The notes under the pieces are model-generated. The model was given only the letters and a program-made list of their open reading frames with translations, was not told where the DNA came from and searched no databases. A stretch of 39,819 nt of DNA from Planctomycetota bacterium (GTDB lineage Bacteria; Planctomycetota; B129-G9; JAJDCN01), in NCBI GenBank assembly GCA_029260815.1, contig JAJDCN010000339.1:1-39819 (forward strand), in the 5' to 3' direction. The translations under genes and the position numbers were made by a program. How positions within the stretch are numbered: the first letter of the stretch is position 1; every line of letters starts with the position of its first letter. Below, piece after piece: positions 1-39,730 of the stretch.

Positions 1-90
1 CGACAGGCGTGCCCTCCGGCTTGGCGAGGTAGGGGACGCACCGCAGGAGGCCGCCGGAGGGCCGAGGAGCAGCAACGGAATGCAGAGAAG

Positions 91-140
91 AGTGGTGGGC
101 GTTACTGGACTCGAACCAGTGACCCCCAGCTTGTCGAGCT
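91..140. repeat. Distal att junction: duplicated 3' half of tRNA-Val (anticodon arm to CCA, minus strand)
   Basis: AGTGGTGGGCGTTACTGGACTCGAACCAGTGACCCCCAGCTTGTCGAGCT is identical to 39652-39701; identity ends 3 bp past the anticodon loop. Confidence 0.96.
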
Positions 141-197
141 CGCCGTCAGCTATGCGAGGACCGCAAGATACTGGGGTTGGAGGGCAGCGCCGAGAGC

Positions 198-221
198 TGC
201 TTGGGCACATGCTTGTCAATC
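198..221 (+). promoter_or_regulatory. Putative integrase arm-type binding sites (12-bp tandem repeat)
   Basis: TGCTTGGGCACA-TGCTTGTCAATC, about 60 bp inside the att core; near-identical tandem at 39504-39527 and 14144-14167. Confidence 0.7.
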
Positions 222-358
222 GAAGTCTAGATCACAACACGATCCAACTCGCCGTGGATCTCCTCCAAGCCTCCGAGACGGCCGGAAACCCGAGCACGCT
301 AGTTCGTGCGGCAGCGGTGCTTCTCGTGGGGAAGCTGGGCCCGCACGACGGGGGGTAG
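209..358 (+). CDS. Small att-adjacent ORF (49 aa from ATG 209); also the in-frame C-terminal extension of the integrase in the excised circle
   Basis: MLVNRSLDHNTIQLAVDLLQASETAGNPSTLVRAAAV aligns ungapped with the ORF at 14155-14289 (14/37 identical, 10 of these with different codons). Start is uncertain. Confidence 0.5.
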   Translation: MLVNRSLDHNTIQLAVDLLQASETAGNPSTLVRAAAVLLVGKLGPHDGG

Positions 359-892
359 CTGCCGCACGCCACCGCAAGTGCATGAACTCCGGCTTGACAG
401 GCCGGAGCGCCCGCTGCGCACGTGGCGGCGGGGGCGTTGGTTGCGATCCGAGCGCGATCCGATGTTGACGTGGATTGCACTGTTCCTGAGCCCGCCACTG
501 CACGACCTCGCAGGAACGACTCCCATTAGCAGGACTTGCGACGCGCCGCGGGAAGGCCGTCAGAGTCAGGGCCAGCGCACACAGCTTCCCCGTCAGGCGA
601 CGACGCTGCACCGTGTGCCCGCCATGTTGCGTGAGGCGGCAGTGTGTCTCCATCCAGGCCGCGCGCGCCACGGCGGGCTTCACGGGTGCCTGCGTCTCGA
701 AGTCCAGCACCTTTGAGGAGATCGGCGCCTGCCCGTGCTGCGCCTGCATAGCGCGGCCTGAGTTGATTCGCGAGTCCGTCGTTGTTCGTGGGGGAGGTTC
801 GCCTTCTGCGCTGCGGAAGTTGCTCAATCGGTCCTACCCGTGCTCCGAAACGGCCGGTCAAGGTCGTGGGCCGCGACCGAGAGGACTAGCCA

Positions 893-1378
893 CTAGTCCC
901 TACGTAAGTCCGGATGGACCCACACACTGATGATGTCCTCCGGTCGCAGTTCGGCGTCTGACGGACCATGTGGCTGAAGGGCCTGCGTGAATGCGGCGAA
1001 CGACGTGTGAAGCGGGGCCAGCGCGCGATCCGCAACTTCCTCATGGTCCCAAAACAGCACGGCTCCTGTGCGAATGTCCACGCACACCAGGTTTCCACCT
1101 TCTGCTTCCGCCACGGGAAGCAACTCATCTCCGAATTCCTTTCGCATCCCCGCGCGCCTCGCAAGCATCTCCACAGATCCAAGAAACACTTGGACTCCCG
1201 AGTCGTTCTGCTGGGATGCAATCTGGAAGATGTTGCCTTCGGGCGTCGCGCCGTTGCATCGCCTCAGGAACTCGAGCAGGTCACGCGGAAGTGCGCGTCC
1301 CAGTCCTCTCTCCAGTGAGGACAGCTCCTCTCCGGTGATGCCTCGATTCTCCTTGATGAGCTTCAGTGCCATGGGCAT
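893..1378 (-). CDS. SMI1/KNR4 (SUKH) family immunity protein
   Basis: LERGLGRALPRDLLEFLRRCNG, LLPVAEAEGGNLVCVD, GAVLFWDHE and SFAAF motifs typical of SUKH; starts 3 bp after the Rhs toxin stop. Confidence 0.93.
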   Translation of the reverse strand: MPMALKLIKENRGITGEELSSLERGLGRALPRDLLEFLRRCNGATPEGNIFQIASQQNDSGVQVFLGSVEMLARRAGMRKEFGDELLPVAEAEGGNLVCVDIRTGAVLFWDHEEVADRALAPLHTSFAAFTQALQPHGPSDAELRPEDIISVWVHPDLRRD

Positions 1379-1381
1379 GCG

Positions 1382-4300
1382 CTACTTCCCCTTCAGTTTC
1401 TTTCGCTCCCGAAGAACCGCCGCGCCGCCAGTGTGTCTTGCCTCGTCGTGGATCCTCTTCGGCAGGAGGAGCATCGTCTCGCCGTCCTCGACGTGATGCC
1501 AAGTGAATCCCTCGGGCGTACATGGGAGACCCGCTGCCGCGTTGGCCTTCGCGGCATCTGTTTTGTTGCGTCCCGTAAGCCCCCGAAGCCGGACTCTCGC
1601 GCGCGCGAATGGCCGGAAGTGGGGGAACCCCTCGGAAGTGAAGTACACGCCCGACGGGTGCCGGCGCCCCGCGAACTTGTAATTGATCGGACGGCGGCCG
1701 TTCACTAGACGAAGACCGGGAGACGTTCCTGAGCCGGGAATCGTGGCGGTACGCGCACCCGCGGCAATGCTCGAGGCAGTCTTGCCATGCCGCAGCGCCT
1801 TTGCCAGCGTTACGCCTCCTCCGACGAGCTCAGCAGCTGCCGCGACCCCTCTTCCCGCCGCAGCAGCAGTGCTGAAGGTCTTGTCGTTCGTGAATAGGTG
1901 CGGTAGTAGGCCCCCGCCAGTGACTTGATCAAGCGCTCCCCATACACCTCCGCCTGCGACCTTGCCTAGCTCGGCAAGATCTCCGTCTGCCCACGCCTCT
2001 GCGGCAGTGACTGCGCTCTTCGCCGCAGCCTCCGCCGAGTGCACGGCGGCCTCTCCGGCCGCCTTCACGTAGGGAGAGGCGGCCCGTCCAAGTCTCACGT
2101 ACCCTTGGATCATCGGGTCTTCCCGAAAAGTCCTGCCGACGGACGCTTCGAAGAGGAGCCCCGGCACGTGCTTCGCCATGCTCAGGAGCTTCTTCCACCA
2201 CGGATCGTCACCATCCAATCCAAACGGATCTGTCCAGTTGGTGGGGGAGCTTGAGACGTACTGATAGAGGTTTGGCCCAGGCGCGTAGCCGAGGGGATCG
2301 CGCTGAAGGAAGCGCCCGATGGCCGCGGAGTAGTACCTCGAGCGGTAGTACTCTAGTCCGCTCTCCTCGTCGTGGAATCGACCCGTGTACATCCACGGGT
2401 TGCCGAGTGGGTCGCTCGACTGTGTCGTCGAGTTGCGCGTGATCGTCACCGAGCCGTAGGGGTCGTAGCGGTAGCTCACCACCACGGCCTCGTTCATGTC
2501 CGTGATAGCCATCACGGACCCGAGTGCGTTGCGGTGATAGAAGCTCCGCGTGGACTCCGTGGTGTTGGCGTCGGAGTCGAAGTCCAGGACATCGGCCTGC
2601 TTGAGCATCAGGACTTCGTCGATGACCTGGCCGAATACGAACTCGCGTACCAAGACGTTCGAGCCGTCGTACACGGCGACGGTCTCGTTGCCCGAGTGGA
2701 TGTAGCGCTCGACGTTGGTCTGATCGTCCTTTTCGACCCGGCGGCCCAAGGCGTCGTACTCGTACTCGGCGATCGTCGTTGAGGCCTGCTTGATGCGAAC
2801 GATCTGGTTCTTGTAGTCGTACTCGTACTTCTGGCTGCCGTCGTCCGTCAGATTGCCGTTCTTGTCGTGGACGTAGGTGTAGCTGCCTACGGCTGTGTAC
2901 TGGTTCAGGTTGTTGTCCGTGTAGGTCGTCGTCGTCGCGCTCTGGCCGTACGGCGTCACCTTCACGGAGGAGCGGTTGCCGTCGTCGTCCAGCGTGTATT
3001 CGACCTTCTTGGTGTACGAGTTGCTCGACGGCGCTGTCACGTCCGTCGAACCCACCCAGGCTGTGGTGAGGCGCCGGGCCGCGTCGTAGTCGAAGGCGTC
3101 ACCCGCTGAGCCCGCCCCGCCGAAGCGTTCGTAGAGCCGATCGTGGTTGTCGTCGTAGGCGTACTGGAGGTCCACGAGCGTCGCTGCGCCCGAAGACTGA
3201 TGATGGATGCGTTCGACCTCGCCACGGAATCCTGTGTAGCTGACGTTGGCCTTAGCTCCGTTCTGGAACGTGACGCGGTTCACGCGCGTTCCGGTGTAGT
3301 CGTACGACGCGATCGTGTTCGTGCCGTCCGTCACGGTCGAGAGGCGGTCGATGTCGTTCCACGTGCGGTCGAGATCCAGGCCCGAGGGGTAGAGCTCCGT
3401 GATCACGTTGCCGACGGCGTCGTAGGTCTTCTTCACCGTCTTCGTGTAGGCCGTGCCGCCCACATAGGACTGCTTCTCCTCGTACACGCCCGAGGACAGT
3501 CCGATCACGCCGTAGGTGAACTCAACCTTGTAGTCGTTGTCTTCCGCCTTCGTCATGCGGCCAGCGCCGTCGTACGTAAAGGTCTCGCTGGTCGTGCCGA
3601 GGAAGCCCGTCGCCCTCGTCACCGTGCGCGACGTGCGCTGGTTGTTGTCGTCGTAGACATCGTCGATGACGTTCCCAGCCGCGTCCGTAGTCTTGGTGAT
3701 GTTGTCAGCGTCGTCGTAGACGTACGTGATCTTCTCCAGGTCCGGGTACTTGAGCTCTGTCACCCGGTCCAACGCATCGAACGTGTACGTCGACGTGTTG
3801 CCCGCATCGTCCTTGTGGGTCGTCATCCGGTCGTTCTTGTCGAAGCCCCACTCGGTTACGACCGCCGAGGTGAAGTCCTCGATCGTGGTTCCCGTGGCCA
3901 GCGCCACCTCCTTCTTGGTCATTCGACCTGCGGCGTCGAACGTCCAGCGCGTCGGGTCGCCCTCCGCGTTCACTCTCCAGAGGAGGTTGCCTCTGCTGTC
4001 GTAGCCGTACTGGACTTCGAGTCTGTTGAGGCTGTCGTTGCGATCGATCTCGACGTAGCTCGTCCGGCGATTCAGTTCGTCGTAGCCGGCCTCGTACTCG
4101 TGCGTCACGGACGTCATGCCCACGACCTCTTCGATGGACCACGCCGTCGGGTTGCCGTTCTTGTCCAGCGTCCAGGTCGTCTTGTTGCCCAGCGCGTCCG
4201 TCACCTTCGTCCGGCGCCAGGCGTTGTCGTACTCGTACGTCGTATCCTTGCCTCGGGCGTTGGTGATCGTCTTCACGTGACCCGTCTTGAATCGCTCGAC

Positions 4301-6565
4301 CTCCGTTACCGCGTTCGAGTAGGTCGTGCCGGGGTCCTTGTGGACGTCGGAGATCTCCCAGAGCCGCCCGCGCTCGTCGTAGTCGTAGTTGCGCTCCTGG
4401 AGGAGTACGTCTGCGCTGTCGTAGCGGCGCAATCTCGTTACGCGCCCGTTCTTGTTGAGTGAGACTTCGGCGTAGTGGCCGATCGGGTCGGTGGCCTTCG
4501 TGCGTCGGTCGAAGAGGTCGTAGGTGTGGTCGGTGTCCTTGTCCCGGCCATTCGTCACGGTGATCAGATTGCCGTTGGCGTCGTAGGCAAACTCCGCCTC
4601 CGACGCCTCGGTCGCCGTCTCCCCGCGTGTGATCTTGCTGATGTAGTCTCGCTCATCGAAGTCCCACTTGACCTTGTTGCCTTCAGGCTTGGTGACGCGG
4701 ATGCGGTTACCACCCACGTCGTAGGCCAAGGTCGTCGTTCGTGTAGTCGAGACGTCGATCTCTTCGACGACCGTTAGGAGCTCGTCCTCGTCCGTGTACG
4801 TGAAGCTTGTCGTGATCCACGGATTGGCCGTGACCGTGTCGCCGTCCTCGTCCTTGTTCTGAATCTCGACCTTGGTCAGGTTGCCGTTGGCGTCGTACTC
4901 GTACTTCGTCTCGTCGGATAGGGGTGTGGGCGCTGTGCGCTTCGTCAGGCGCCGGAGGTTGTCCCATTGGAGGGAGGTGGCGTTGCCGCGCGCGTCCGTG
5001 ATCGACGTGATGTTGCCGGCAGAGTCGTAGGCAAACGAGGTCTCTAGGTCCAGTCCCGTCGAGTCCACCTCGATCTTCTCGAGCAGGCCCCAAGTCGAGC
5101 CGGTCGTCGCAATGTAGTGGTACTTGGTGACCTTCTCTTCCTCGTCGGTCACCTGGGTGATCTGCCCGTAGGTGTTGTAGGTGATGTCCTTGTCGGCTGT
5201 TTGCGTTGCGGGATCCGTCACCGTCGGATAGGCGATCTTCGTGACGTTGCCGTCGCTGTCTCTTGTGAAGCTTGTCTGGTCGCCCATGGGGTTCGTGTAC
5301 GTCACCATGAAGTTGCTGGTGTAGGTCCACGTGTGGACGATGTCCGATGCGTCGGTCGAGGCCGTGTCTGTCGTCTTGTGGCGCCGCTCAGTGAGGTTGT
5401 CGCTGCCGTCCCACGTGTAGTCGATGCGATTGCCGCGCGGGAACACCACGGTGACGACCTGGCCGCCAGAGTAGGTGTACTCCGTCGCGTACTTGGCGAC
5501 CGAGCTCACGTACATGTCGGTCTTCGTGATGTTGGCGCCAGTGTGATGGGCGCGGTGGATGTTGCCGTTGCGATCCGTGCGGTCGGTGCGACCGCTCACA
5601 AGCGTGTACTCAACGTCGGCGCCATCGATGGTCACCTTGTCGATCTTCGCCGTCGATCCGACCCAGGTGTACTCGTTGACCGTGTTGCCGCGCCCATCCT
5701 CGATGCTGGAGATTCGATCGGAGGCGTCGTAGGAGATCGTGGTCGTGATGCCGCTGACCTGCTGTGCGGTTGCGGGCGTGTCGATCGTCTCCAGGTTGCC
5801 GTTCGTGTCGTAGCCAAACTCCCACTTCTGACCAGAGGGGATCTCGATCTCGCTGAGGAAGCCGTCGGCGTTGTGGTCGAAGCTGAACGATCCCCCGCGT
5901 GTGTCCGTCAGGCCGGTGATCTGGTAGCTGCTGTTGTAGGTGAAGTCGAGTTCGTTGCCGTTGCGGTCGGTGTACTTGTCCGGCATGCCGTTGGCGTCGA
6001 AGAGCATCTCGGCGCCGTACTTGTCGGTCAGCTTGTAGATTCCCGAGCTAGGGGACGTCAGGGTGTGGTGCACGCTGCAGTCTTGTGTCGAGTAGTCCGT
6101 GCCGTCCCAGTCGTAGGTCACAACGAGACCAGAGGAGTCGCGCCAGTGAATCTGGTGCCCACCGTTTCCGTCGGGATCCTCGGGATCTAGCTCGTCGTAC
6201 TCGACGGTGTGTTCGAACGAGAGGATGAAGCCGTTGCCGACCTGTGTCATGCCGGATCGGTAGCTGCGCCACGAGAGGGAGATCGGGAAGTCTCCGCCGA
6301 CGCCCCGCAGGCGGCACAGGTCGTACGTGAACACGAGCTCGGTGGTGACCCAGTTCACGTTCTCGGCTGACCACAGCGCCGGCCGGGGGCACGGGGGGCA
6401 CCAGCAACCAGCACACTCCTGCTGGGGCGACGTGTTGCTCCAGAAGGGCGAGGAGTACGTGGTCGCTTCAGCGACACGGGGCGCGGGAACAAGCAGCGCG
6501 GCTACGCCCACGAGCACCGCAAGGACAACGACGAACGGACCATAGCGACGGATCTGGCGTGCCAT
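1382..6565 (-). CDS. Rhs/YD-repeat polymorphic toxin with Sec-type signal peptide and C-terminal WHH (HNH/EndoVII-fold) nuclease
   Basis: Many YD repeats; core end RFLQRDPLG...NLYQYVSSSPTNWTDPFGL; tip GFPHF...GFTWHHVED...IHDEARHTGG. Start placed at ATG 6565 (GGGAG 6 nt upstream), giving MARQIRRYGPFVVVLAVLVGVAALLVPAPRVAEA. Confidence 0.93.
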   Translation of the reverse strand: MARQIRRYGPFVVVLAVLVGVAALLVPAPRVAEATTYSSPFWSNTSPQQECAGCWCPPCPRPALWSAENVNWVTTELVFTYDLCRLRGVGGDFPISLSWRSYRSGMTQVGNGFILSFEHTVEYDELDPEDPDGNGGHQIHWRDSSGLVVTYDWDGTDYSTQDCSVHHTLTSPSSGIYKLTDKYGAEMLFDANGMPDKYTDRNGNELDFTYNSSYQITGLTDTRGGSFSFDHNADGFLSEIEIPSGQKWEFGYDTNGNLETIDTPATAQQVSGITTTISYDASDRISSIEDGRGNTVNEYTWVGSTAKIDKVTIDGADVEYTLVSGRTDRTDRNGNIHRAHHTGANITKTDMYVSSVAKYATEYTYSGGQVVTVVFPRGNRIDYTWDGSDNLTERRHKTTDTASTDASDIVHTWTYTSNFMVTYTNPMGDQTSFTRDSDGNVTKIAYPTVTDPATQTADKDITYNTYGQITQVTDEEEKVTKYHYIATTGSTWGLLEKIEVDSTGLDLETSFAYDSAGNITSITDARGNATSLQWDNLRRLTKRTAPTPLSDETKYEYDANGNLTKVEIQNKDEDGDTVTANPWITTSFTYTDEDELLTVVEEIDVSTTRTTTLAYDVGGNRIRVTKPEGNKVKWDFDERDYISKITRGETATEASEAEFAYDANGNLITVTNGRDKDTDHTYDLFDRRTKATDPIGHYAEVSLNKNGRVTRLRRYDSADVLLQERNYDYDERGRLWEISDVHKDPGTTYSNAVTEVERFKTGHVKTITNARGKDTTYEYDNAWRRTKVTDALGNKTTWTLDKNGNPTAWSIEEVVGMTSVTHEYEAGYDELNRRTSYVEIDRNDSLNRLEVQYGYDSRGNLLWRVNAEGDPTRWTFDAAGRMTKKEVALATGTTIEDFTSAVVTEWGFDKNDRMTTHKDDAGNTSTYTFDALDRVTELKYPDLEKITYVYDDADNITKTTDAAGNVIDDVYDDNNQRTSRTVTRATGFLGTTSETFTYDGAGRMTKAEDNDYKVEFTYGVIGLSSGVYEEKQSYVGGTAYTKTVKKTYDAVGNVITELYPSGLDLDRTWNDIDRLSTVTDGTNTIASYDYTGTRVNRVTFQNGAKANVSYTGFRGEVERIHHQSSGAATLVDLQYAYDDNHDRLYERFGGAGSAGDAFDYDAARRLTTAWVGSTDVTAPSSNSYTKKVEYTLDDDGNRSSVKVTPYGQSATTTTYTDNNLNQYTAVGSYTYVHDKNGNLTDDGSQKYEYDYKNQIVRIKQASTTIAEYEYDALGRRVEKDDQTNVERYIHSGNETVAVYDGSNVLVREFVFGQVIDEVLMLKQADVLDFDSDANTTESTRSFYHRNALGSVMAITDMNEAVVVSYRYDPYGSVTITRNSTTQSSDPLGNPWMYTGRFHDEESGLEYYRSRYYSAAIGRFLQRDPLGYAPGPNLYQYVSSSPTNWTDPFGLDGDDPWWKKLLSMAKHVPGLLFEASVGRTFREDPMIQGYVRLGRAASPYVKAAGEAAVHSAEAAAKSAVTAAEAWADGDLAELGKVAGGGVWGALDQVTGGGLLPHLFTNDKTFSTAAAAGRGVAAAAELVGGGVTLAKALRHGKTASSIAAGARTATIPGSGTSPGLRLVNGRRPINYKFAGRRHPSGVYFTSEGFPHFRPFARARVRLRGLTGRNKTDAAKANAAAGLPCTPEGFTWHHVEDGETMLLLPKRIHDEARHTGGAAVLRERKKLKGK

Positions 6566-6845
6566 GAGCATCTCCCTCGCGCGCCACTGGGAAGGACTCT
6601 GGGCGCGACCAATGCTCCGGTTCTGCCTGAGGTGAGGGCCCAGCTTCAATCGCCGCGTACGAATGTAATTCAAATGAAAGACACGAGTCGGCCGTCTCCA
6701 AGGGGAGTCCGGCGTCCCTGTCGAGCGGCGGCCGCACCAGGGTTTCTCCCGACGGCGGGGCGTAGCGCATGTCCGCCCAGCGTCACGCTGGTTGTCAGGC
6801 CTGCACGAGGCACTACCCTGGTTGGACCTGTCGGGGAGACACGGA

Positions 6846-7550
6846 ATGAGCGGGGAGAGGATCCTCATAATCCATCGGCGTCAGCGCGTGCGTGATCGCA
6901 TCCGGCGCTACCTGAAGGCTGCGCCCGGCGGGCTCAGCGTGAATCGCCTTTCTGATGATGAGTTGGCGCTCTCCCGTCTCCAGGTCCTTCGTCCTCACGT
7001 AGTGGTGCTTGGCTGTCGGTTCGACAGCGACGTTGATTGTTGGCGTCTCTGTCGTTCGATCCGCAGGCGCCATCCCCGACGTGAGTTGGGCATCCTCGCA
7101 GTCGTCTCCTGCCTCGAGGACGGGTACGAGTCGCGCGCTCTACTTGAGGGGGCCGATCTCTGTCTCCATGCAGAGCGCCTGAGTCGGGACGTCGTGCAGA
7201 CGAATGTGGCAGGTCTCGTGCAGCGGGTCGGTCGGCGTCGGGACCGCCGCCTGCGTCTGGGCGCCCTGACTCTTGTTTCACAAGGACGGTGGATGCGGGT
7301 GCGGGGGCGCAAGGTGCAACTCACGCCAACGCAGTTCAGCGTCCTCTGGCGCCTCGCCCAGGCTCCTGAGCGGCTCCATTCGGCGCGGGCGGTCATTGGG
7401 TACGGTGACTCTGTGCCACCGGAGAAGGCTGAGCAACTGGCGTACATCCACATCCACAGGCTCCGTAAGCGCCTCGGAGAGGACTCAGGGCTGATCAGGA
7501 GCGTGAGGGGCATTGGCTACGGCCTAGACCTCAAGTGGCAGGCTGGCTAG
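6846..7550 (+). CDS. OmpR/PhoB-family transcriptional regulator with degenerate (pseudo) receiver domain
   Basis: C-terminal wHTH LTPTQFSVLWRLA...YIHIHRLRKRL...IRSVRGIGY; receiver-like N-terminus RILII...PHVVVLG...ALLEGAD lacks the acidic pocket and phospho-Asp. Confidence 0.85.
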   Translation: MSGERILIIHRRQRVRDRIRRYLKAAPGGLSVNRLSDDELALSRLQVLRPHVVVLGCRFDSDVDCWRLCRSIRRRHPRRELGILAVVSCLEDGYESRALLEGADLCLHAERLSRDVVQTNVAGLVQRVGRRRDRRLRLGALTLVSQGRWMRVRGRKVQLTPTQFSVLWRLAQAPERLHSARAVIGYGDSVPPEKAEQLAYIHIHRLRKRLGEDSGLIRSVRGIGYGLDLKWQAG

Positions 7551-8446: not shown

Positions 8447-8552
8447 GTGCAGGGGAGCATCAAGGCCGCCGCGCCTTGCTAGCGAGCCCGGGACACTTGG
8501 GCCATGTGCTTAGCCCTAGGTGCAGACGATGACGTCGTGAGGAGAGGTGGAC

Positions 8553-10310
8553 ATGCGGGTATCAGCCAAGAAGGAAGGCTTCTCTGTGCACGCAATCTCG
8601 GGCACTCGTGCGGTCATCTTGGCCATGAACGCCCGGGAAGACGCTCTTCAGGACTTCCTCGGGTTCGGGATCGGCATTCGTTCGCCAGGCGATGGCGCGA
8701 TTCGCTGGCTACGAGGGTTCAAGTGTTTCGCGACGTTGGAGCCCACTCCGACGCGCGGCCAGCGGTTCGAGACCGTCGAACATCCCATTCAAGGCTTTAT
8801 GTGGGGACACTACTGGGCAGACCCCGATCAGGAGTATCGATACGTCGTACGTCCGCTGTTCTTGCCAGCGAGCGGCAAGTTGGACGACCTCAGGCACGGC
8901 GCGGATCTTGAGGTGACGATTCGCACCGAGAAGGAGGACTCCGGTACGCACTCCATCTACTTCAATCGCGGCGCGATCGTGAGCCAGGCGTACGCGGAGA
9001 AGTTCCAGAATGACAACAACCTGACCGCCGCCGAGCTGAAGGCCGAACTCAACGACAAGGATGCTGAGAGGACCAAGTGGCTCTCGCGCGGCCTGCTGGA
9101 GGGGGCACTGGGCTTCATTGCACAGGCGAAGTCGAGTCGATTCTCGCTGCACTGCTGCTTCTACGAGCTGACGTACCCTCCCATTCTGAAGGCGCTTGCT
9201 GATGCGGCCGCGGCGGGCGCCGAGGTGCAGGTCACCTTCGACGCCGACCACTTCAAGCGCAGCCGTAACCGCCGCGAAGAGTCCGCGCAGGGGAAGCGCA
9301 ACCGCGAAGCGATTGAAGCGTTCAAGGGGCGGCCGCGCTTGCACTTCAAGGAGCGGATCCACTACATCTCGCTGACGCACAACAAGTTCATGGTGCTGCT
9401 GGACAATGGGCGGCCCGTGCAGGTCTGGACGGGCTCCACCAACATCACCCCCTCCGGCTTCTGTGGTCAGTCGAACACGGGTCACGTCGTCCGCAATGAG
9501 GCCGTCGCGAAGCAGTTTGAGGACTACTTCACCCTGCTGGCTCGTGACGAACAGCGTGAGGCCCTAAAGGTGTTCACTGGCGCGGCCTCGCCCAACCCTC
9601 CCGACAGTTTGCCCCCAAACAGCATCACGACCCTGTTCAGCCCTCGTCGTGGCGAGTCGATGATGGATTGGTACGGGGGGCGCGTTGAGGGCGCCAAGCA
9701 GACGGTCATCCTCACCTCGGCGTTCGGCGTGACCACGAAGCTGGCGAAGTACTTCGACAATGACCGTGACTACCTGCGCTACATCCTGATGGAGCAGAAG
9801 AGCCGTGGGGCTGGCGCGCAAGCGATGATCGAGCGCGACAAGGACACGCGGATCGTCCTTGGCCAGGGCCTTGGCTACACAGGCTCCATGGGAAACTGGC
9901 GGAAGGTGCCAGGCTTCAAGCTTGAGGAGTGGATGTGGCGCGAGCATCACTACCGCAGCTCCGGGCACGTGTTCTTCATCCACACCAAGTACATGGGCAT
10001 CGATGTGCTTACTGATGACCCGATCGTGTTCACCGGCTCGGCCAACTTCTCGCCGAACTCCCTCACATCCAACGACGAGAACATGCTCCTGATCCGAGGA
10101 GACACTGGCGTAGCGGACGTGTACCTGACGGAGTTCTTCCGGCTGTTGAACCACTTCTACTTCCGCCAGGTCGCGAACCGGAGGGCGAGGGACGGAAAGA
10201 GCGATTCCGGCGTGCGTTGGCTGGCGGAGGACGACAGCTGGGTGTGGGGCCACTATCAGCCCAGCTACTACCGATCAAAGCGCCGGGAGTTGTTTGGCGT
10301 GCCAGCCTAG
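8553..10310 (+). CDS. Phospholipase D-superfamily protein (two HKD motifs), cytoplasmic
   Basis: HNKFMVLLD...WTGSTN and HTKYMGID...FTGSANFS...NDEN; GGAGAGG RBS before ATG 8553; no signal peptide seen. Confidence 0.9.
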   Translation: MRVSAKKEGFSVHAISGTRAVILAMNAREDALQDFLGFGIGIRSPGDGAIRWLRGFKCFATLEPTPTRGQRFETVEHPIQGFMWGHYWADPDQEYRYVVRPLFLPASGKLDDLRHGADLEVTIRTEKEDSGTHSIYFNRGAIVSQAYAEKFQNDNNLTAAELKAELNDKDAERTKWLSRGLLEGALGFIAQAKSSRFSLHCCFYELTYPPILKALADAAAAGAEVQVTFDADHFKRSRNRREESAQGKRNREAIEAFKGRPRLHFKERIHYISLTHNKFMVLLDNGRPVQVWTGSTNITPSGFCGQSNTGHVVRNEAVAKQFEDYFTLLARDEQREALKVFTGAASPNPPDSLPPNSITTLFSPRRGESMMDWYGGRVEGAKQTVILTSAFGVTTKLAKYFDNDRDYLRYILMEQKSRGAGAQAMIERDKDTRIVLGQGLGYTGSMGNWRKVPGFKLEEWMWREHHYRSSGHVFFIHTKYMGIDVLTDDPIVFTGSANFSPNSLTSNDENMLLIRGDTGVADVYLTEFFRLLNHFYFRQVANRRARDGKSDSGVRWLAEDDSWVWGHYQPSYYRSKRRELFGVPA

Positions 10311-10446
10311 TCGCTGCCGTGCGCCTGATAGGGCGCCGCCCACGCGGCTTGCCTGCTGCTAACCGCCCGCTACGCGGGCCTTCCGCGCGCGAGACTTCTC
10401 GCGTGTGTGAGGCAGCGACGGGAACGGTGGCCACAATGGTCGCAAG

Positions 10447-10532
10447 TGACCTGCCCCCAATGAAACGGTCCAGCTACAGGGGGGCAGGTCCCCAAACCCC
10501 AAGACCTGGACTGACATTCGAGGATCAGGTCA
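10447..10532. mobile_element. Miniature IS3-family (IS407-like) remnant consisting of terminal inverted repeats only
   Basis: Left TGACCTGCCCCCAATGAAACGGTCCAG versus reverse complement of right end TGACCTGATCCTCGAATGTCAGTCCAG (16/27 identical, TG...CA ends); internal GGGGGCAGGTC copy; no target duplication seen. Confidence 0.5.
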
Positions 10533-10679
10533 AGAGCCCACAACGCGCTACACTGATGAGTGTGGAATATCTGAGAATCAAACGGGCGCTCCTCTTGACG
10601 GGGCATTGTCGCCAGTCCCCGCGATCGACGGTGCGGCCATTGCCGTCCGCGAACGAATCACATCAGTGGGAGGAGTGAC

Positions 10680-13010
10680 GTGGGCGCCTTCGAACAAATC
10701 CACCATGACGCCGGGCGCTACTCGCCCGCTGCCGCGGCCGAGCGCTATGTTCTGCCGCCCACGGGCATGCCCTCTCCGGATCAGAACTACCTGATCATTG
10801 GACCCAGGGGCGCCGGCAAGACAATCATGTTGAAGACGATGTTCTCGCGGTGGTCCGCGCGAGGCGATCTCCTGCCAGCGTACATCGAGCTTGACCGCTG
10901 GATTCAGGGCTGCGCAAGTGAGGTGGGCCGCGAAGAGGAGTCCGTAACACCGCGTGTCAGAGTAATGACGGATTGTCTCCGCCTCGCTACAGCGATGGGC
11001 TTGATTCATGGCGTCGCCAAGGCGGCCGAAGCGCTGATTGGCCAAGACCTTGCAACTCAGATCGTTGTGCCAGCCTTGCAGTACTCGAATCTCAGCACCA
11101 ACGTTGAGGAGGCGGTTGGTTCGGTCCGCAAGACGATCAGGCGCTGCATCACCGGCTCTGACTCCGGCGCGCCGGAGCCCCCCCATATACCCGCAGTAGC
11201 CGAGATACTCGGTGAACAGGCTCGGGCGGTCGGCGGGCGTGAGCTAGTTCTGCTTGTCGATCAGATAGACCAAGCCCCGTCCAGGGTGTTCGGTCCGGTC
11301 ATCTCTCTCCTTCGTCGGCACACTCACTGCATCGCCATTCTAGCGACTCGTCCGTGTCCCACGGCTCCTCAGCCTGCATTCCTGCCAGGGGACTGTGTGG
11401 CTGGAGACTCGTACCAGGCATGGAATCTGGATAGAGAGTCATTGGGGGATCCGTGGCAGCGCTTCCTGGGTGAAGTGCTGGCCAAGCTCCCTCTCGATGG
11501 CGTCCAGTCCAGACTCCAGGAGAGTGTCGGCGTGCTAGCGAATCTGACCTGGCCGTCACTCCGATCCGCCATCCGGATTGCGAAGGCTACAGCGCGCATG
11601 GCACCAGCAAGCAGCTTCGACGTTGCATGGCAGCAAGCACTCGCCGACGAAGCGGCCAGTCACGAGAATCTCGTGGAGTCCGCCCTGAGCGCCTGGTGCG
11701 ATCCACATGCGGTTCTACGCGACTGGCGCAAACGGGCAGTCAAGAACGCTGAGGCACCCGAGGACATTCGGTCTGGGAAGGTGAGTATCCGGGCATTCAC
11801 TCGGTTGAAGCTCCAAGCAGATGTTCTGTTTGAGGTTGCGCCAACGCCCGCATCCAGGCTGATACGCGTGGCCCTCCAGGCCGGCGTACTATCACCGACG
11901 AGAGATGCGCCATATGTACTGGACCACATTCCCCGGCGGCTTGAGGTCTCGCCGCTGCTCTTTTACCCAATCCTGCCTGGTGTGCCGACGACCGCACGCA
12001 CCACACAAGCCGTGTGGGATACGACGAAGGAGCAACTGAAGCCGCTAATGCGCGCCGGATTTGCACCCAAGGCGCCGAGACTGAAGCGCCTCTTCGTCTC
12101 ACACTGGATGAGTGATTGGGGCGGAGACAGCCCTGAGCTGTTTGCGTCTCTGTCAAATGCACTGCATGGCGTGATCGACGTTCGAACGGGTGCCTCCGTC
12201 GACGGGAACTTGTCCACAACCATCCTCAGCCAACTCAAGGAGTGTGACGCGGTTGTGTGTGACTTTGGAACGCCTAGGAGAGAGGTGTATGTCGAGTACG
12301 GATGGGCGATTGGTAACGAAATGCCCGTCCTTCACGTTGTGGTAGACGAAGACTGCATCGAACGCCTTCCCCATTGGCTCGCCCATCTGACAGTCCGGCC
12401 GTATGGGAGAGAGACCGAGAGAGAGGCACTGGCAGCGCGTGTACGGGCACTTCTGAGCCGGCGCCTTAGCACGGAGGAGCAGTTCAAGTCTCTTGGACCA
12501 ACCACTCTCAGGCGCACGCCGGAACCAAACGTAGTCAGTGTCCTGACGTCGGCGGAGACGGAGAAGTCAGTGTTGCAACGCTGCCGGCCTCTCATCGAGG
12601 AACATGGCTTCGTAATGCGACACCTAGTGATCAACAGTAACGACCCGGGAATGCTTGCACAGACGATCCTGGCGGCTCGGTGCGCTGGTAGCCTTGTCAT
12701 CGCGCTAGATGGCTCGGAGCACGACTACCTCGGGCTGGTCGCCGCGGCCATACTCCACGCTCGACCGAGCATGCGGACTACGAAGGCTGCTCGAACGAGG
12801 CCCAAGGCGCGAAAGAAGGTCCAGTACTCAACCAAGCTCAGGACGGTGTTCGTTCTTCCAACAGAACCCAGCCTCGGACTGCCAAAGCTACTCACCGGGC
12901 ATCCACGGACTGTGGTGACTGCCGACTATTCGGAACTCAGAACAAAGCTCGGTCTGCGAATCGCAGAGCTTTCGAAGTGGTTGCGAGCTGCGGGCAGAAA
13001 GACAACATAG
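10680..13010 (+). CDS. ORC/CDC6-like (STAND-related) P-loop ATPase fused to C-terminal NDT/TIR-like Rossmannoid domain(s)
   Basis: Walker A LIIGPRGAGKT, Walker B LVLLVDQID, later LRSAIR; C-terminal LFVSHW...ILSQLKECDAVVCDFG...EVYVEYGWAIGNEMPVLHV resembles NDT/TIR-like folds; GGAGGAG RBS before GTG. Confidence 0.8.
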   Translation: MGAFEQIHHDAGRYSPAAAAERYVLPPTGMPSPDQNYLIIGPRGAGKTIMLKTMFSRWSARGDLLPAYIELDRWIQGCASEVGREEESVTPRVRVMTDCLRLATAMGLIHGVAKAAEALIGQDLATQIVVPALQYSNLSTNVEEAVGSVRKTIRRCITGSDSGAPEPPHIPAVAEILGEQARAVGGRELVLLVDQIDQAPSRVFGPVISLLRRHTHCIAILATRPCPTAPQPAFLPGDCVAGDSYQAWNLDRESLGDPWQRFLGEVLAKLPLDGVQSRLQESVGVLANLTWPSLRSAIRIAKATARMAPASSFDVAWQQALADEAASHENLVESALSAWCDPHAVLRDWRKRAVKNAEAPEDIRSGKVSIRAFTRLKLQADVLFEVAPTPASRLIRVALQAGVLSPTRDAPYVLDHIPRRLEVSPLLFYPILPGVPTTARTTQAVWDTTKEQLKPLMRAGFAPKAPRLKRLFVSHWMSDWGGDSPELFASLSNALHGVIDVRTGASVDGNLSTTILSQLKECDAVVCDFGTPRREVYVEYGWAIGNEMPVLHVVVDEDCIERLPHWLAHLTVRPYGRETEREALAARVRALLSRRLSTEEQFKSLGPTTLRRTPEPNVVSVLTSAETEKSVLQRCRPLIEEHGFVMRHLVINSNDPGMLAQTILAARCAGSLVIALDGSEHDYLGLVAAAILHARPSMRTTKAARTRPKARKKVQYSTKLRTVFVLPTEPSLGLPKLLTGHPRTVVTADYSELRTKLGLRIAELSKWLRAAGRKTT

Positions 13011-13994
13011 ATGTCGGCTGCGACCACCATGAGTAACTTCGTGGCCTCTAGGCCGAACTTGACCGGTCCGTTGTACTGGCTTGGTGCGGCAAGCTTTGAA
13101 GAGCGGTGCCTGGGCAGTGCGCGAGTACTCGCGGAATTCGGCGGGTCACTCGAAGCAGGGCTCATTGTCGACTACGCAACAAAGATAGAGCCGGGCGGCG
13201 CTGGACAGGAGCTTAGAGCCAAGTACCGGAAGGCACTGTTTGACAGCTTGCCTGCGCGGGACCTGCCTCTTCAAGCGTATCGCTTCGGTCCGATGATCGG
13301 GGCACTGGAGTCTATTGAGAGGTCATGGGGTGGCAATCGCGCCACTACGCTGGTTGTCGATGCCACATGCTTCACCAAGATCCACTCGGTAGCACTCGGG
13401 TACTGGCTTGCGACCCAGCGTTGCGTCAAGGATGTCCTGGTCGCGTACACTCGTCCAATTGAGTACGGCACAGAGGTAACGAACGTGCAGGCGCGTGGAA
13501 GGTGGGTAGAGACCATCGTTGCACCTCTGGGTTTCGACCCACAGCTCACGAGCGGCGAAACGACAGGACTACTCCTTCTAGGTCACGAGGGTAGCAGGTT
13601 GCGGCTCGCGGTTGATGCGCTTGAGCCCGACGGTGGTCTGGCAATCCTCGCAGGCGCTGAGGACAGCGCCCTCACTCGGATCTCGGAGTGGAAGAACGGG
13701 TGGTTGCTTGGGCAAGCTGCGGAGGATGGGATCGACCTTGAGACGGTCGACTTCTTCTCTGCGCAGGCAATGCGCAAGTCGGTCTCAGGCGTCGCCGCGC
13801 AGGCACGGGCCGCGAACGCTCGGATGGTCATCTATCCCTTCGGACCGAAGCCGCACGTGATTGCGGCGTCGTTCTACGCCGCAGTCCTGGCACCGCGGCG
13901 ATCCTGGATCAGCTACCCCGTACCCAAGTCGTACTCGTTGACGTACACGTCAGGGGTGGGGCTGACGTACTGGGCGAGCATTCGACTCAGTTAG
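13011..13994 (+). CDS. Putative tandem CARF-like Rossmann protein coupled to the ATPase
   Basis: ATG immediately follows the ATPase TAG. Two repeats: WLGAASFEER...LVVDATCFTK...VLVAYTRP and LLLLGHEGSR...LEPD...IYPFGPKP...ISYPVP. The ORF is solid; the fold call is an inference. Confidence 0.65.
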   Translation: MSAATTMSNFVASRPNLTGPLYWLGAASFEERCLGSARVLAEFGGSLEAGLIVDYATKIEPGGAGQELRAKYRKALFDSLPARDLPLQAYRFGPMIGALESIERSWGGNRATTLVVDATCFTKIHSVALGYWLATQRCVKDVLVAYTRPIEYGTEVTNVQARGRWVETIVAPLGFDPQLTSGETTGLLLLGHEGSRLRLAVDALEPDGGLAILAGAEDSALTRISEWKNGWLLGQAAEDGIDLETVDFFSAQAMRKSVSGVAAQARAANARMVIYPFGPKPHVIAASFYAAVLAPRRSWISYPVPKSYSLTYTSGVGLTYWASIRLS

Positions 13995-14074
13995 ACGCGT
14001 GTAGTTCACGTGTCGTTGAGCTTCCCCCGGTCTGGTGGACACCTACCCCGTGTGGATCTCAGTTGCCGCGAGCG

Positions 14075-14167
14075 CAGCCTGTCGAGCTGGGGGTCACTAC
14101 ATGGCGGGCGCCACGGATGGGGCTTCCCGAGGGGCCGCAGGGATGCTTGGGCGCATGCTTGTACACG
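14075..14167 (+). repeat. Cryptic internal att-like junction (core half-site plus arm repeats)
   Basis: CAGC-CTGTCGA-GCTGGGGGTCACT: 6/7 match to the anticodon-loop overlap TTGTCGA, then the exact reverse complement of core arm AGTGACCCCCAGC; arm tandem TGCTTGGGCGCA-TGCTTGTACACG starts 59 nt after the overlap (61 nt at the left end). Confidence 0.75.
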
Positions 14168-14289
14168 AATCGCGGCCGGAGGATTTCGTGATGCTATCGG
14201 TCGAGCTGTTGCTTGCGTCGAGGGATTCCACGAACTCACGAATGCTCATCTTCGCCGGGAGGGTGACCATGCAGAGCTCGCACGAGTGA
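14155..14289 (+). CDS. Small att-adjacent ORF, homolog of 209-358
   Basis: MLVHESRPEDFVMLSVELLLASRDSTNSRMLIFAGRV; same position relative to arm repeats as ORF 209-358. Could be a decayed copy. Confidence 0.45.
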   Translation: MLVHESRPEDFVMLSVELLLASRDSTNSRMLIFAGRVTMQSSHE

Positions 14290-14449
14290 CCTAGGTAGCT
14301 GGGGCAGGTCACTGGGCCAGTACAGGCTTCCCACCAGGTTGCCCAAGACCCCGTTCAGGTCCATGCCGTGCTTCGCTCTCGCGATGACTGGCACTCAGCG
14401 GACTTGGACCTCATGACAAGGTTGGCCAGGCGCGGTAGGTTGACGCGCT

Positions 14450-27808: not shown

Positions 27809-28038
27809 CGGCCACCGCAGACTTGCGGCTTGAGTGGCCCGGCTTACGGCGGTGGTCGCCGCGCTACCGCACGGCGTCGCCCGAGGCTTGGGTTCCTCTG
27901 CTGGCGTTGATTCGGTCTTGCGGGGATCTACGAGTGGGGATCTCCACGGCCGTGAGCGTAGCCTGGCGAGCTGGGGGCGGCTCACCCATGCCGGTGCCCG
28001 GCGCCCAAGACGCCTGGCGAATCGGCTATGCGACTTGA

Positions 28039-34558: not shown

Positions 34559-34935
34559 TGGAGTTGACCCGTTTCGGTGGACACCTACGCAGTGGGGATC
34601 TCAGGGGCCGCCAGGGCAGCCTGTTCGTACTTGATCGGTGACTTGTAGTCGAGGGCGGAGTGCCTCCGACGCGGGTTGTAGAAGCCTTCGATGGACTCGA
34701 AGATGGCCATCTCGGCCTGCGCCCTGGTCTTGAACCTGTGGCGGCGAGTCAGCTCATGCTTGAGCGTCGCGAAGAAGCTCTCGCACATCGCGTTGTCGTA
34801 GGAGTCGCCCACCGAGCCCGTAGAGGGGCGCAGCCCCGCGGCGCCGCAACGGTGCCCGAACGCGAGCGAGGTGTACTGGCAGCCCTTGTCGCTGTGATGG
34901 ATCACGCCCACGGGCTGGCGCTGGCGTACCGCCAT
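34559..34935 (-). mobile_element. IS3-family remnant: 3' part of the orfB transposase (rve core) plus right terminal repeat
   Basis: IHHSDKGCQYTS, DSYDNAMCESFFATLKHE, FYNPRRRHSALDYKSP; minus-strand end TGTCCACCGAAACGGGTCAACTCCA at 34559-34583; 5' part missing. Confidence 0.92.
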
Positions 34936-37658: not shown

Positions 37659-37925
37659 ATGTCTCAAGAGGATCGCTTCCTCGTCCTCAGCGAAGCTGCT
37701 GAAGATCTCGAACTCTCAGTCGCCGAGGTACGTCGCCTCGTCGAAGAGGGTGAACTCGAAGGCCATCGCGACGAGCCCACCGGCCCGTTGTTGATCACCA
37801 AGGAAAGCGTCGATGACTACGCCGATGAGGCGGATGACGACGCTGACGAGGATGCCTTCGACCGCGGCTACAACGAAGGTCACGCCGATGGCCTCGCTGA
37901 AGCCGACCACCAAGAGGACGACTAG
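37659..37925 (+). CDS. Acidic excisionase-like HTH protein
   Basis: FLVLSEAAEDLELSVAEVRRLVEEGEL...LLITKESVDDY fits the HTH_17 pattern; GGAG RBS; D/E-rich tail. Confidence 0.75.
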   Translation: MSQEDRFLVLSEAAEDLELSVAEVRRLVEEGELEGHRDEPTGPLLITKESVDDYADEADDDADEDAFDRGYNEGHADGLAEADHQEDD

Positions 37926-37937
37926 TCGTCCTCTCGT

Positions 37938-37966
37938 CGGGGCGGCCCTCTCTGAGGGCCGCCCCG
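37938..37966. terminator. Perfect 13-bp GC stem-loop between the two xis-like genes
   Basis: CGGGGCGGCCCTC-TCT-GAGGGCCGCCCCG; no clear U-tract, so terminator function is uncertain. Confidence 0.5.
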
Positions 37967-37983
37967 GTTCTGAGAGGCCAAGC

Positions 37984-38208
37984 ATGGCCAAGGAAGAACC
38001 CCAGAAGGCAGGCGTCGCAGGTCTGCCGCAGCTCCTGAAGGTCGCCGAGGTGTCGACGATCTTGAACGTCGATCAGCGAACGCTGCGCGCCTGGATCGCA
38101 GCCCGGAAGATCGGCGTCGTGCGCCTGTCTAGCCGCTGCCTGCGCATTCCGTCAGGCGAGCTCGAGCGTTTCATCGAAGAGCGTCTCGATGGGCCGAAGA
38201 CGCGCTGA
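37984..38208 (+). CDS. xis: Excisionase / recombination directionality factor (HTH_17)
   Basis: LLKVAEVSTILNVDQRTLRAWIAARKIGVVRL...LRIPSGELERFI directly upstream of the integrase. Confidence 0.82.
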   Translation: MAKEEPQKAGVAGLPQLLKVAEVSTILNVDQRTLRAWIAARKIGVVRLSSRCLRIPSGELERFIEERLDGPKTR

Positions 38209-38278
38209 ACGAGGTCCAGGACGCTCGGCCTCTTGGGGTCACCACAACTCGTTAGAATGGGGACGTTGGAGGTATGCC

Positions 38279-39724: not shown

Positions 39725-39730
39725 ACGCCC
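39654..39730 (-). tRNA. tRNA-Val (anticodon GAC)
   Basis: Reverse complement folds as GGGCGTT-TA-GCTC AGTTGGCTA GAGC-A-CCAGC TCGACAA GCTGG-GGGTC-ACTGG TTCGAGT CCAGT-AACGCCC-A-CCA (77 nt, encoded CCA). Confidence 0.97.

Follow-up and report, generated by a model that had tools for sequence, protein, structure and literature searches.

What does the small ORF at 209-358 encode, given that it lies just inside the left attachment junction of a mobile island and has a partner resembling it at 14155-14289? From the letters of this 39,819-nt stretch of DNA (hereafter the window), the two ORFs had been taken for a conserved micro-protein that is present twice, being either a small helical protein or a swappable integrase tail. 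The evidence assembled here makes it probable that ORF 209-358 is the detached 3′ part of the integrase gene (int) carried by the island itself, which spans the attachment site, and that the encoded tail is carried by the enzyme only in the excised circle.

An island integrated in a tRNA-Val gene

The window is the whole of one contig (C267) of a 3.5-Mb metagenome-assembled genome. A repeat search of the window returned a perfect direct repeat of 50 nt (91-140 and 39652-39701), the right copy of which is the 3′ part of a tRNA-Val(GAC) gene on the minus strand. The window is therefore a single 39.6-kb island integrated in tRNA-Val, with the following ends:

91-140, no strand: attL core, i.e. 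the displaced 3′ part of tRNA-Val; left end of the island, matching 39652-39701 perfectly
39652-39701, no strand: attR core, within the intact tRNA-Val gene; right end of the island
39654-39730, minus strand: tRNA-Val(GAC), the integration target (ARAGORN)

This anatomy is observed directly, and on the attL side independent contigs of the sequencing runs X1 and X2 span 111-929 and 111-643, respectively, with zero differences.

Four DNA runs of one study (X1-X4) also bear on how the site is occupied. Island contigs have a depth of about 3-6, whereas for the chromosomal flank (1-120) X2 gives 37.6 and X3 gives 12.3; loose contig ends at 140 run on into an intact tRNA-Val 5′ half. An unoccupied attB appears to coexist with the occupied site, with the proviso that the flank depth may partly stem from other organisms sharing this tRNA-Val. 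On that reading, the island would be polymorphic and has probably moved in the recent past. The attP junction was absent among the loose ends listed when the contigs of the four runs were mapped onto 1-3000, a reference that could not carry both island ends. A contig joint seen in X2 and X3, which passes from 140 to 91 and thus goes back 50 nt, was set aside as evidence: its short side comprises only 30-32 letters, and it may derive from tandem tRNA-Val genes of other organisms. In X2, moreover, a contig of depth 45 matches 22 nt at 197-218, skips 161 nt and resumes at 380, with unrelated sequence before 197; it may belong to another organism or element with the same arm motif.

A Pfam scan of 20 large window ORFs revealed no virion genes. 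Part of the cargo, at 893-6868 on the minus strand, is an Rhs-repeat protein of 1828 aa with a C-terminal WHH/colicin-DNase nuclease tip, next after whose gene comes a SUKH (SMI1/KNR4) immunity-type gene (893-1378); judged by these domains, the region 893-6868 is a polymorphic toxin cassette carried on the island. On the plus strand, 8547-13994 holds a PLD-like nuclease (8547-10310) and an ORC/Cdc6-like AAA ATPase (10680-13010) that translationally abuts a 327-aa ORF without a Pfam match. A fragment of an IS3-type transposase with rve_3/rve_2 matches is found at 34585-34935 on the minus strand.

The integrase gene reads through the core into the tRNA

At the right end of the island, the genes of interest are:

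38189-39724, plus strand: tyrosine integrase gene int in its integrated form, comparable to IntX of phage Mx8 (Pfam Phage_integrase, E 5.4e-19)
37813-38208, plus strand: excisionase-family HTH_17 gene (Pfam HTH_17, E 3.1e-10, 40.6 bits vs a cut-off of 27)
37659-37925, plus strand: second small HTH_17-like ORF (HTH_17, E 1.8e-5, 25.4 bits, under the Pfam cut-off of 27)

The match of int to PF00589 covers residues 250-422 and scores 69 bits (cut-off 27.1). R256, K296, H383, R386, H409 and Y419 are invariant in an alignment of 15 homologs, and we read these columns as the presumptive catalytic R-K-H-R-H-Y set; for an arm-binding domain, residues 1-137 gave no Pfam match. The HTH_17 gene at 37813-38208 lies directly upstream of int, overlaps its start and is a candidate directionality factor.

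Instead of ending within the island, int crosses the P arm and the att core. It contains no stop before the core, reads VVGVTGLEPVTPSLSS over 39652-39701 and meets its stop within the tRNA gene after seven further codons (39722-39724), so that the last seven residues of the integrated form, WCSSQLS, are tRNA-antisense sequence.

Reading into the tRNA is the rule in this integrase clade. Among 21 int homologs with a convergent tRNA downstream, 19 have no stop in this frame between the catalytic Tyr and a point 20 nt into the tRNA, while the other two frames are open in 5/21 and 3/21 (202-347 nt tested, GC 0.46-0.73). Open frames come cheap in GC-rich DNA, where they arise by chance, and weight was therefore put on these control frames and on low-GC relatives; three of the 19 tRNA-reading genes lie in DNA of only 46-49% GC. 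Two of the 21 stop before the tRNA (L067, L091), as does G329, which is outside that set. The closest relative of int (G183:C8, L064; 60% identity) also sits beside a tRNA-Val GAC and reads through it in another frame (...GGRYWTRTSDPQLVELVL), meaning that the crossing phase is not fixed even among near relatives. As to sequence features of the clade, the int linkers often carry ATGT(D/A/E)G some 25-35 residues past the catalytic Tyr (L076-L079, L085, L090), and the int of contig G000:C58, which does not reach a tRNA, ends in ...TSATG.

The left-end ORF continues the integrase frame

The left end of the island carries the counterpart of this open-ended gene:

92-358, plus strand: tail ORF, the continuation of the int frame past the core, reading VVGVTGLEPVTPSLSS in int's frame; homologs are P0003 and a copy in G030:C26
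209-358, plus strand: the ORF first noticed, which is the distal part of the tail ORF; translation MLVNRSLDHNTIQLAVDLLQASETAGNPSTLVRAAAVLLVGKLGPHDGG followed by a stop
236-328, plus strand: conserved two-helix module NTIQLAVDLLQASETAGNPSTLVRAAAVLLV

Frame continuity is thus observed on both sides of the core: over 91-140, ORF 80-358 encodes the same residues that int encodes over 39652-39701, and then continues for about 73 more. The frame spanning 1-468 is also open besides that of 80-358. A circle would arise by recombination between the cores, and int would therefore continue into the tail without a break. One metagenome protein of 109 aa, P0003, aligns with ORF 80-358 at 43% identity over 86 residues, and its match takes in the tRNA-Val-antisense residues VGVTGLEPVTPSLSS.

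The life cycle that we propose follows from joining the two ends. In the attP circle, int would be read from the catalytic domain through a linker with the arm-type motif into the 50-nt core, taken in the tRNA-antisense sense, and beyond it through a second copy of the motif into a tail of about 70 residues ending in the conserved two-helix module. Integration would cut int at the core, whereupon the integrated gene would obtain its WCSSQLS ending from the tRNA gene and the tail-coding piece would stay behind at the opposite island end, immediately inward of attL, as the ORF first noticed. The tail would then by its presence mark an enzyme made in the excised state. Both the production of a fused protein, deduced from the two island ends, and the role of its tail are inferences. 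By analogy with IntP and IntX of Mx8, full-length and truncated Int may differ in activity or site preference; such a difference would bias the circle to integration and stabilise the integrated island, with the HTH_17 protein giving directionality to excision.

The arrangement recurs in relatives

To what extent is this layout found elsewhere? A tail profile built from five sequences, one of them the second window copy at 14140-14289, gives matches at E<=0.01 in 18/401 genomes of the phylum, the window's own counted; a six-frame search of relatives had located the copy in G030:C26 and a weak match in contig C58 of the window's own genome. In protein space, 1.84 billion representatives yielded 39 matches to the profile at E<=1e-3, mostly small proteins (36 with 43-211 aa). 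The three larger ones are P0006 and P0024, known by match only (10 and 4 matched stretches, respectively), and P0027, a repeat protein without integrase features.

Homologs beside tRNA att sites, which had been named as a check on the original prediction, do exist: an antisense T-loop precedes the module by 90-151 nt in 14/22 module loci, with a spacing of 128-151 nt in 13 of these 14. In 15/18 tail loci, ARAGORN found tRNA fragments only and no intact tRNA, and these loci are therefore attL-type ends. At least one tail locus, L049, has the mirror arrangement, in which the ORF crosses an intact tRNA in the sense direction. From the module, the frame is open back to the antisense T-loop in 13/14 loci vs 5/14 and 3/14 for the other frames; the exception, L032, has a stop between T-loop and module.

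Complete islands allow both halves to be compared, and five further ones show an int-phase continuation. On the 7.7-kb island of G166, inserted at a tRNA-Ala, the displaced core is followed by an open frame in the phase of int that contains the same module. Counted from the start of the repeat, the int-phase frame stays open for 67 codons in G038 (other frames 17 and 13), 97 in G170 (25 and 5), 80 in G269 (13 and 24) and 28 in G073 (13 and 0). Where tail and int lie on one contig, they have the same orientation, with the tail at the far end (window, G166:C7, G308:C8, G245:C585). G000:C58 differs from this layout in that its tail lies 3.5 kb downstream of an int (46-48% identity) that ends at its own stop. 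This tail (L029, 3811-4113) is the second copy in the genome and comes after tRNA-Asp-like sequence, which ARAGORN calls as a 72-nt tRNA; further tRNA-like fragments extend up to the contig end.

Fused form or separate gene

The excised state would be most directly visible as a fused gene, for which several collections were searched. None of the 39 module proteins found at E<=1e-3 among the 1.84 billion representatives is a fusion of integrase length (P0006 and P0024 being judged by match only), and 522 candidates among longer homologous proteins include none at E<=0.01. Viral contigs gave two pattern matches to the fused form, neither of them confirmed; genome contigs gave one locus, without fusion; and two scans of metagenome contigs gave zero loci and then one (L093), which is another attL end. 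A tblastn search of the tail against phages produced matches at chance level only (E 0.1-4), and the ESM Atlas gave no usable match for the fused form. A complex prediction for Int and tail, both entered as alignments and with controls not included, scored 0.00 vs a mark of 0.32.

The absence of a fused form from every database searched is what would be expected of a stand-alone micro-protein, translated from a separate start while the island is integrated and active in trans, e.g. on Int or Xis, with the continuity into the tRNA being incidental. Such a gene would also fit the 36 small module proteins of 43-211 aa predicted by gene callers, the ATGs at 209 and 14155 and the start of P0007 at the same MLV as the window ORF. 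Yet no start is conserved in position: only 7/22 loci have an in-frame ATG in the 45 or so codons preceding the module, its distance varying between 1 and 39 codons, and where the window ORF has the proposed initiator Met, P0003, P0009, P0012 and the copy in G030 show V, L or G. Nor does a gene starting downstream need the frame to be open all the way back to the T-loop, as it is in 13/14 loci, or the phase of int to equal that of the tail, as it does in the window and in G166. Upstream of the integrated island lies unrelated chromosomal flank, so no conserved promoter can travel with the element. We consider a separate micro-protein distinctly unlikely on these grounds, and of the two alternatives offered at the outset the swappable integrase tail is favoured by the continuity of int and tail, whereas a peptide starting at the arm-repeat ATG is not.

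Two copies in the window, one of them a relic

The comparison that had first drawn attention to this locus stands as described. ORF 14155-14289, which translates as MLVHESRPEDFVMLSVELLLASRDSTNSRMLIFAGRVTMQSSHE followed by a stop, aligns without gaps to ORF 209-358 and shares 14 of the first 37 residues; ten of these identities use different codons and four the same. When the MLV encoded by the arm motif is left out, 11/34 identities remain, for which P is about 1.25e-4 against random 34-mers from the window's real proteins, 2.4e-4 against any open frame and 1e-5 upon shuffling of residues.

The claim that the peptide is present twice at an att junction needs to be qualified on both counts. There are two copies, but the second is a decayed relic and the first is probably a working half of a gene. 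Likewise, the junction is borne out at 209-358 by the 50-nt repeat and tRNA-Val but not at 14140, which instead adjoins the remnant of an IS3-like end:

14140-14289, plus strand: relic copy of motif and tail (profile E 2.1e-22, being itself among the five sequences used to build the profile)
14026-14082, no strand: IS3-like end remnant abutting the relic, with 82% identity to 34568-34624, the end of the transposase fragment at 34585-34935 (minus strand)

Within the relic, the module (14182-14274) is altered at conserved positions (NS for NP, AGR for AAR, TM for LL), and its frame is out of register by one base with the core-like sequence that precedes it (spacing of 70 nt vs 69). The IS3 homology of 14026-14082 ends at CAGCCTGT, a look-alike of the tRNA-Val anticodon-loop region, past which the sequence runs on as CGAGCTGG, again like the tRNA-Val anticodon region; a third, partial copy of the relic junction occupies 27934-27977. 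On the simplest reading, 14140-14289 would be a relic attL-type junction, left when a related element recombined at a look-alike site in the IS.

The IS3-like ends of the window form a set of three related copies (14026-14093, 27934-27977 and 34568-34635), only the third of which lies in a recognisable transposase fragment. Common to the first two is an additional stretch, GCCTGKCGAGCTGGGGG..., similar to the anticodon region of tRNA-Val, which gives both the look of old recombination junctions. Reading the minus strand at 14097-14312 as the decayed C-terminus of an rve transposase was considered and dropped: it has no Pfam support at E<=10, and only 14026-14093 is IS-like.

Selection acts on the peptide

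Which strand is under selection cannot be told from the window pair by itself because antisense frame -1 scores similarly, with 12/46 identities between the copies; the wider family does name the coding strand. When 21 homologous module DNAs are compared in pairs, mean identity amounts to 0.613 at the first codon position, 0.628 at the second and 0.375 at the third, for which composition alone predicts 0.325. Of the codon differences, the share that is synonymous is 0.354 in the tail frame, 0.263 in the best antisense frame and 0.07-0.12 in the others. Two loci of one genus, L032 and L035, differ at four sites, and all four differences are synonymous third-position changes. Selection on the peptide, first proposed from the codon usage of two ORFs, is confirmed by these figures.

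Little speaks for a gene on the opposite strand, in which 216-827 or 232-498 and 14097-14312 (all minus strand) would be coding and the plus-strand similarity their shadow. The 12/46 identities and the second-highest synonymous share are what such a gene would predict, but the share of the plus frame is higher, a stop interrupts the antisense frame within the module ±45 nt in 9/22 loci, and five antisense ORFs tested gave no Pfam match at E<=10. This reading is hardly credible.

An arm motif that varies and a module that persists

The start codons themselves belong to a DNA motif. As originally stated, the ATGs at 209 and 14155 both lie inside repeated arm sequence, namely the 18-nt motif TGCTTGGNCRCATGCTTG, which occurs in the window at positions 198, 14144 and 39504 only (three matches were reached in 0/100 shuffles):

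198-215, plus strand: 18-nt tandem heptamer motif of the P′ arm, read as LLGHML
39504-39521, plus strand: P-arm copy of this motif, lying within the int ORF and translated in its frame as LLGHML

It is thus present once per arm in direct orientation, plus once in the relic, and all three copies read (L/M)LG(H/R)ML. Its placement makes it a candidate arm-type binding site for Int. The element on C58, which targets tRNA-Asp in the same genome, has another tandem heptamer, TGTCACC, at the equivalent place and keeps the peptide module. We take the motif to be a DNA-level feature that varies with the integrase, and the module downstream of it to be the part that is conserved as a protein. For the G166 island, no exact 8-mer shared between P and P′ arms was found.

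Alternatively, the constraint might lie in the DNA throughout, with P′ arm sites for Int, Xis or a bending protein giving rise to peptide conservation as a by-product and with no translation at all. The first residues of the ORF, LLGHML, indeed come from the motif that recurs in both arms and the relic, comparable LLGxxLG runs occur in P arms where int has a different tRNA target (L086, L090), and the distance between T-loop and module varies little (128-151 nt in 13/14 loci). Past the motif, however, conservation tracks codons, with position 3 near the value expected from composition, and G000:C58 retains the peptide module despite its different motif and different tRNA. A constraint on DNA only is accordingly very improbable, and the tail of a split integrase remains our preferred reading of the ORF.

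The tail is predicted to be a helical hairpin

The family module comprises 31 residues with the consensus DPxALAxxLLxxAExAxDPxPLIxAAxALL. The helical fold anticipated for the peptide is supported by AlphaFold2 (AF2), which, given the family alignment, places helices at residues 2-27 and 33-48 (mean pLDDT 79); confidence rises to 95-96 across the module, with pLDDT values of 96 and 95 for residues 21-40 of 194-355. The tail is accordingly modelled as a plain helical hairpin. Pfam returned no family for ORF 80-358 at E<=10, which includes the HTH_17/winged-helix families that a directionality factor of that type would match; for the region of the relic ORF (14035-14289), the only hit was DUF6113 (E 0.039, below its cut-off). 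The module is previously unnamed and strongly conserved.

Many tails end in ...A(T/A)G before the stop, as in QEATG, DKATG, QAAAG and QSATG (P0003, P0015-P0017, P0019, P0022, P0030; L033, L034). Resemblances outside integrases include P0027, a non-integrase protein of 460 aa with three module-like repeats (LATELLQxAQxSTDPxxxxxLIQAAxDLMGG), and a HEAT-repeat protein matched by L045. The module may be distantly HEAT-like, or such matches may reflect chance among Ala/Leu-rich helices.

Comparison with known recombination systems

Some tyrosine recombinases regulate catalysis through C-terminal tails, such as the lambda Int tail, Cre helix N and the XerD C-terminus, in which a short helical stretch comes after the catalytic Tyr. 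Those tails lie within about 15-25 residues of the Tyr and form a permanent part of the enzyme. The helical segment after the catalytic Tyr is the likeness on which our proposed mode of action is based; unlike in these enzymes, about 150 residues would separate Tyr and module here, and the module would be present in only one att state. Excisionases and HTH_17 directionality factors are, like the tail, small att-proximal proteins, and they set the direction of recombination. The tail differs from them in its lack of a Pfam match at E<=10 and its predicted plain hairpin, and the island already has an HTH_17 gene at 37813-38208.

In the SSV-type Sulfolobus integrases, the split removes a larger part of the gene and the integrated copy is inactive, whereas the island int keeps the whole catalytic domain with all six catalytic residues. 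What is shared with these fuselloviruses is an att site within int and a partitioning of the gene upon integration (PMC4383910).

The closest precedent is the integrase pair IntP/IntX of Myxococcus phage Mx8, whose target is tRNA-Asp. A review and the Islander paper describe an attP inside the Mx8 int gene and a new 3′ end that int receives through integration (PMC6070905, PMC4383910); the new end is said in the review to alter the specificity of the enzyme rather than to inactivate it (PMC6070905), and the integrases of both Mx8 and SSV are described as extending across attP (PMC4383910). Mx8 int (AF396866, 5208-6809) encodes the catalytic Tyr, a linker, ARSTGLEPV and then about 110 residues. 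Both systems hence have a tyrosine integrase ORF that crosses the core in the tRNA-antisense sense (...ARSTGLEPV... in Mx8, ...VVGVTGLEPV... here), a tail of about 70-110 residues past the core and an excisionase-type gene directly upstream of int that overlaps its start (uoi in the Mx8 annotation, HTH_17 here). They differ in that Mx8 is a phage, whereas the 20 large island ORFs scanned include no virion genes. In addition, the effect of the swap was tested in Mx8, according to the review (PMC6070905); for the island, a corresponding effect is predicted by analogy.

At the level of protein families, the two do not appear to be related. A tblastn search with the window Int matched 13 of 50,697 phage records, Mx8 not among them, and hhalign compared the tail family with Mx8 IntP at a probability of 0.13% (E 0.43). 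Int and tail of the window accordingly stand outside the Mx8 IntP family and appear to represent the same kind of device in another integrase clade and with an unrelated tail.

Meaning of a gene probably divided by its own product

An int gene that spans attP was already known from Mx8, the one phage in which this layout has been studied; here it appears to be the rule in a widespread clade (19/21 genes read into their tRNA), and it comes with an unnamed conserved tail module. A gene that is cut and rejoined by the reaction of its own product would provide the element with a memory of its state without any dedicated regulator. The regulatory role in excision or integration suggested for the peptide remains putative, and its principle is already known from Mx8. 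For annotation, an over-long int ORF running over a tRNA gene and a small orphan ORF at the opposite island end can be understood as two halves of one gene rather than as annotation noise; together they mark the island ends and let attP be deduced. If its effect is confirmed, a removable tail that changes directionality would also be useful for integrase engineering.

A further-reaching proposal, which we regard as conceivable but on balance doubtful, is that the two-helix module serves a large clade of integrative elements of this phylum as a portable tag of the excised state, in that tailed Int comes from the circle only and the tail licenses the attP x attB synapsis or blocks the attL x attR one. 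Read-in transcription might in addition allow low-level translation of the orphan tail ORF at attL, the product of which would serve as a decoy in trans and keep the tail-less Int of the integrated island inactive. If true, this would place a directionality switch in the topology of a gene rather than in a separate regulator, and it would explain the purifying selection on the tail while it is detached from int, the only state observed here.

Finally, the metagenome island L093 (4387-8148) carries the same tail at its tRNA end, adjoined by an HTH_17 excisionase-type gene and an ORF of 766 aa. By eye, the latter resembles a primase-helicase; if so, some of these elements can replicate.
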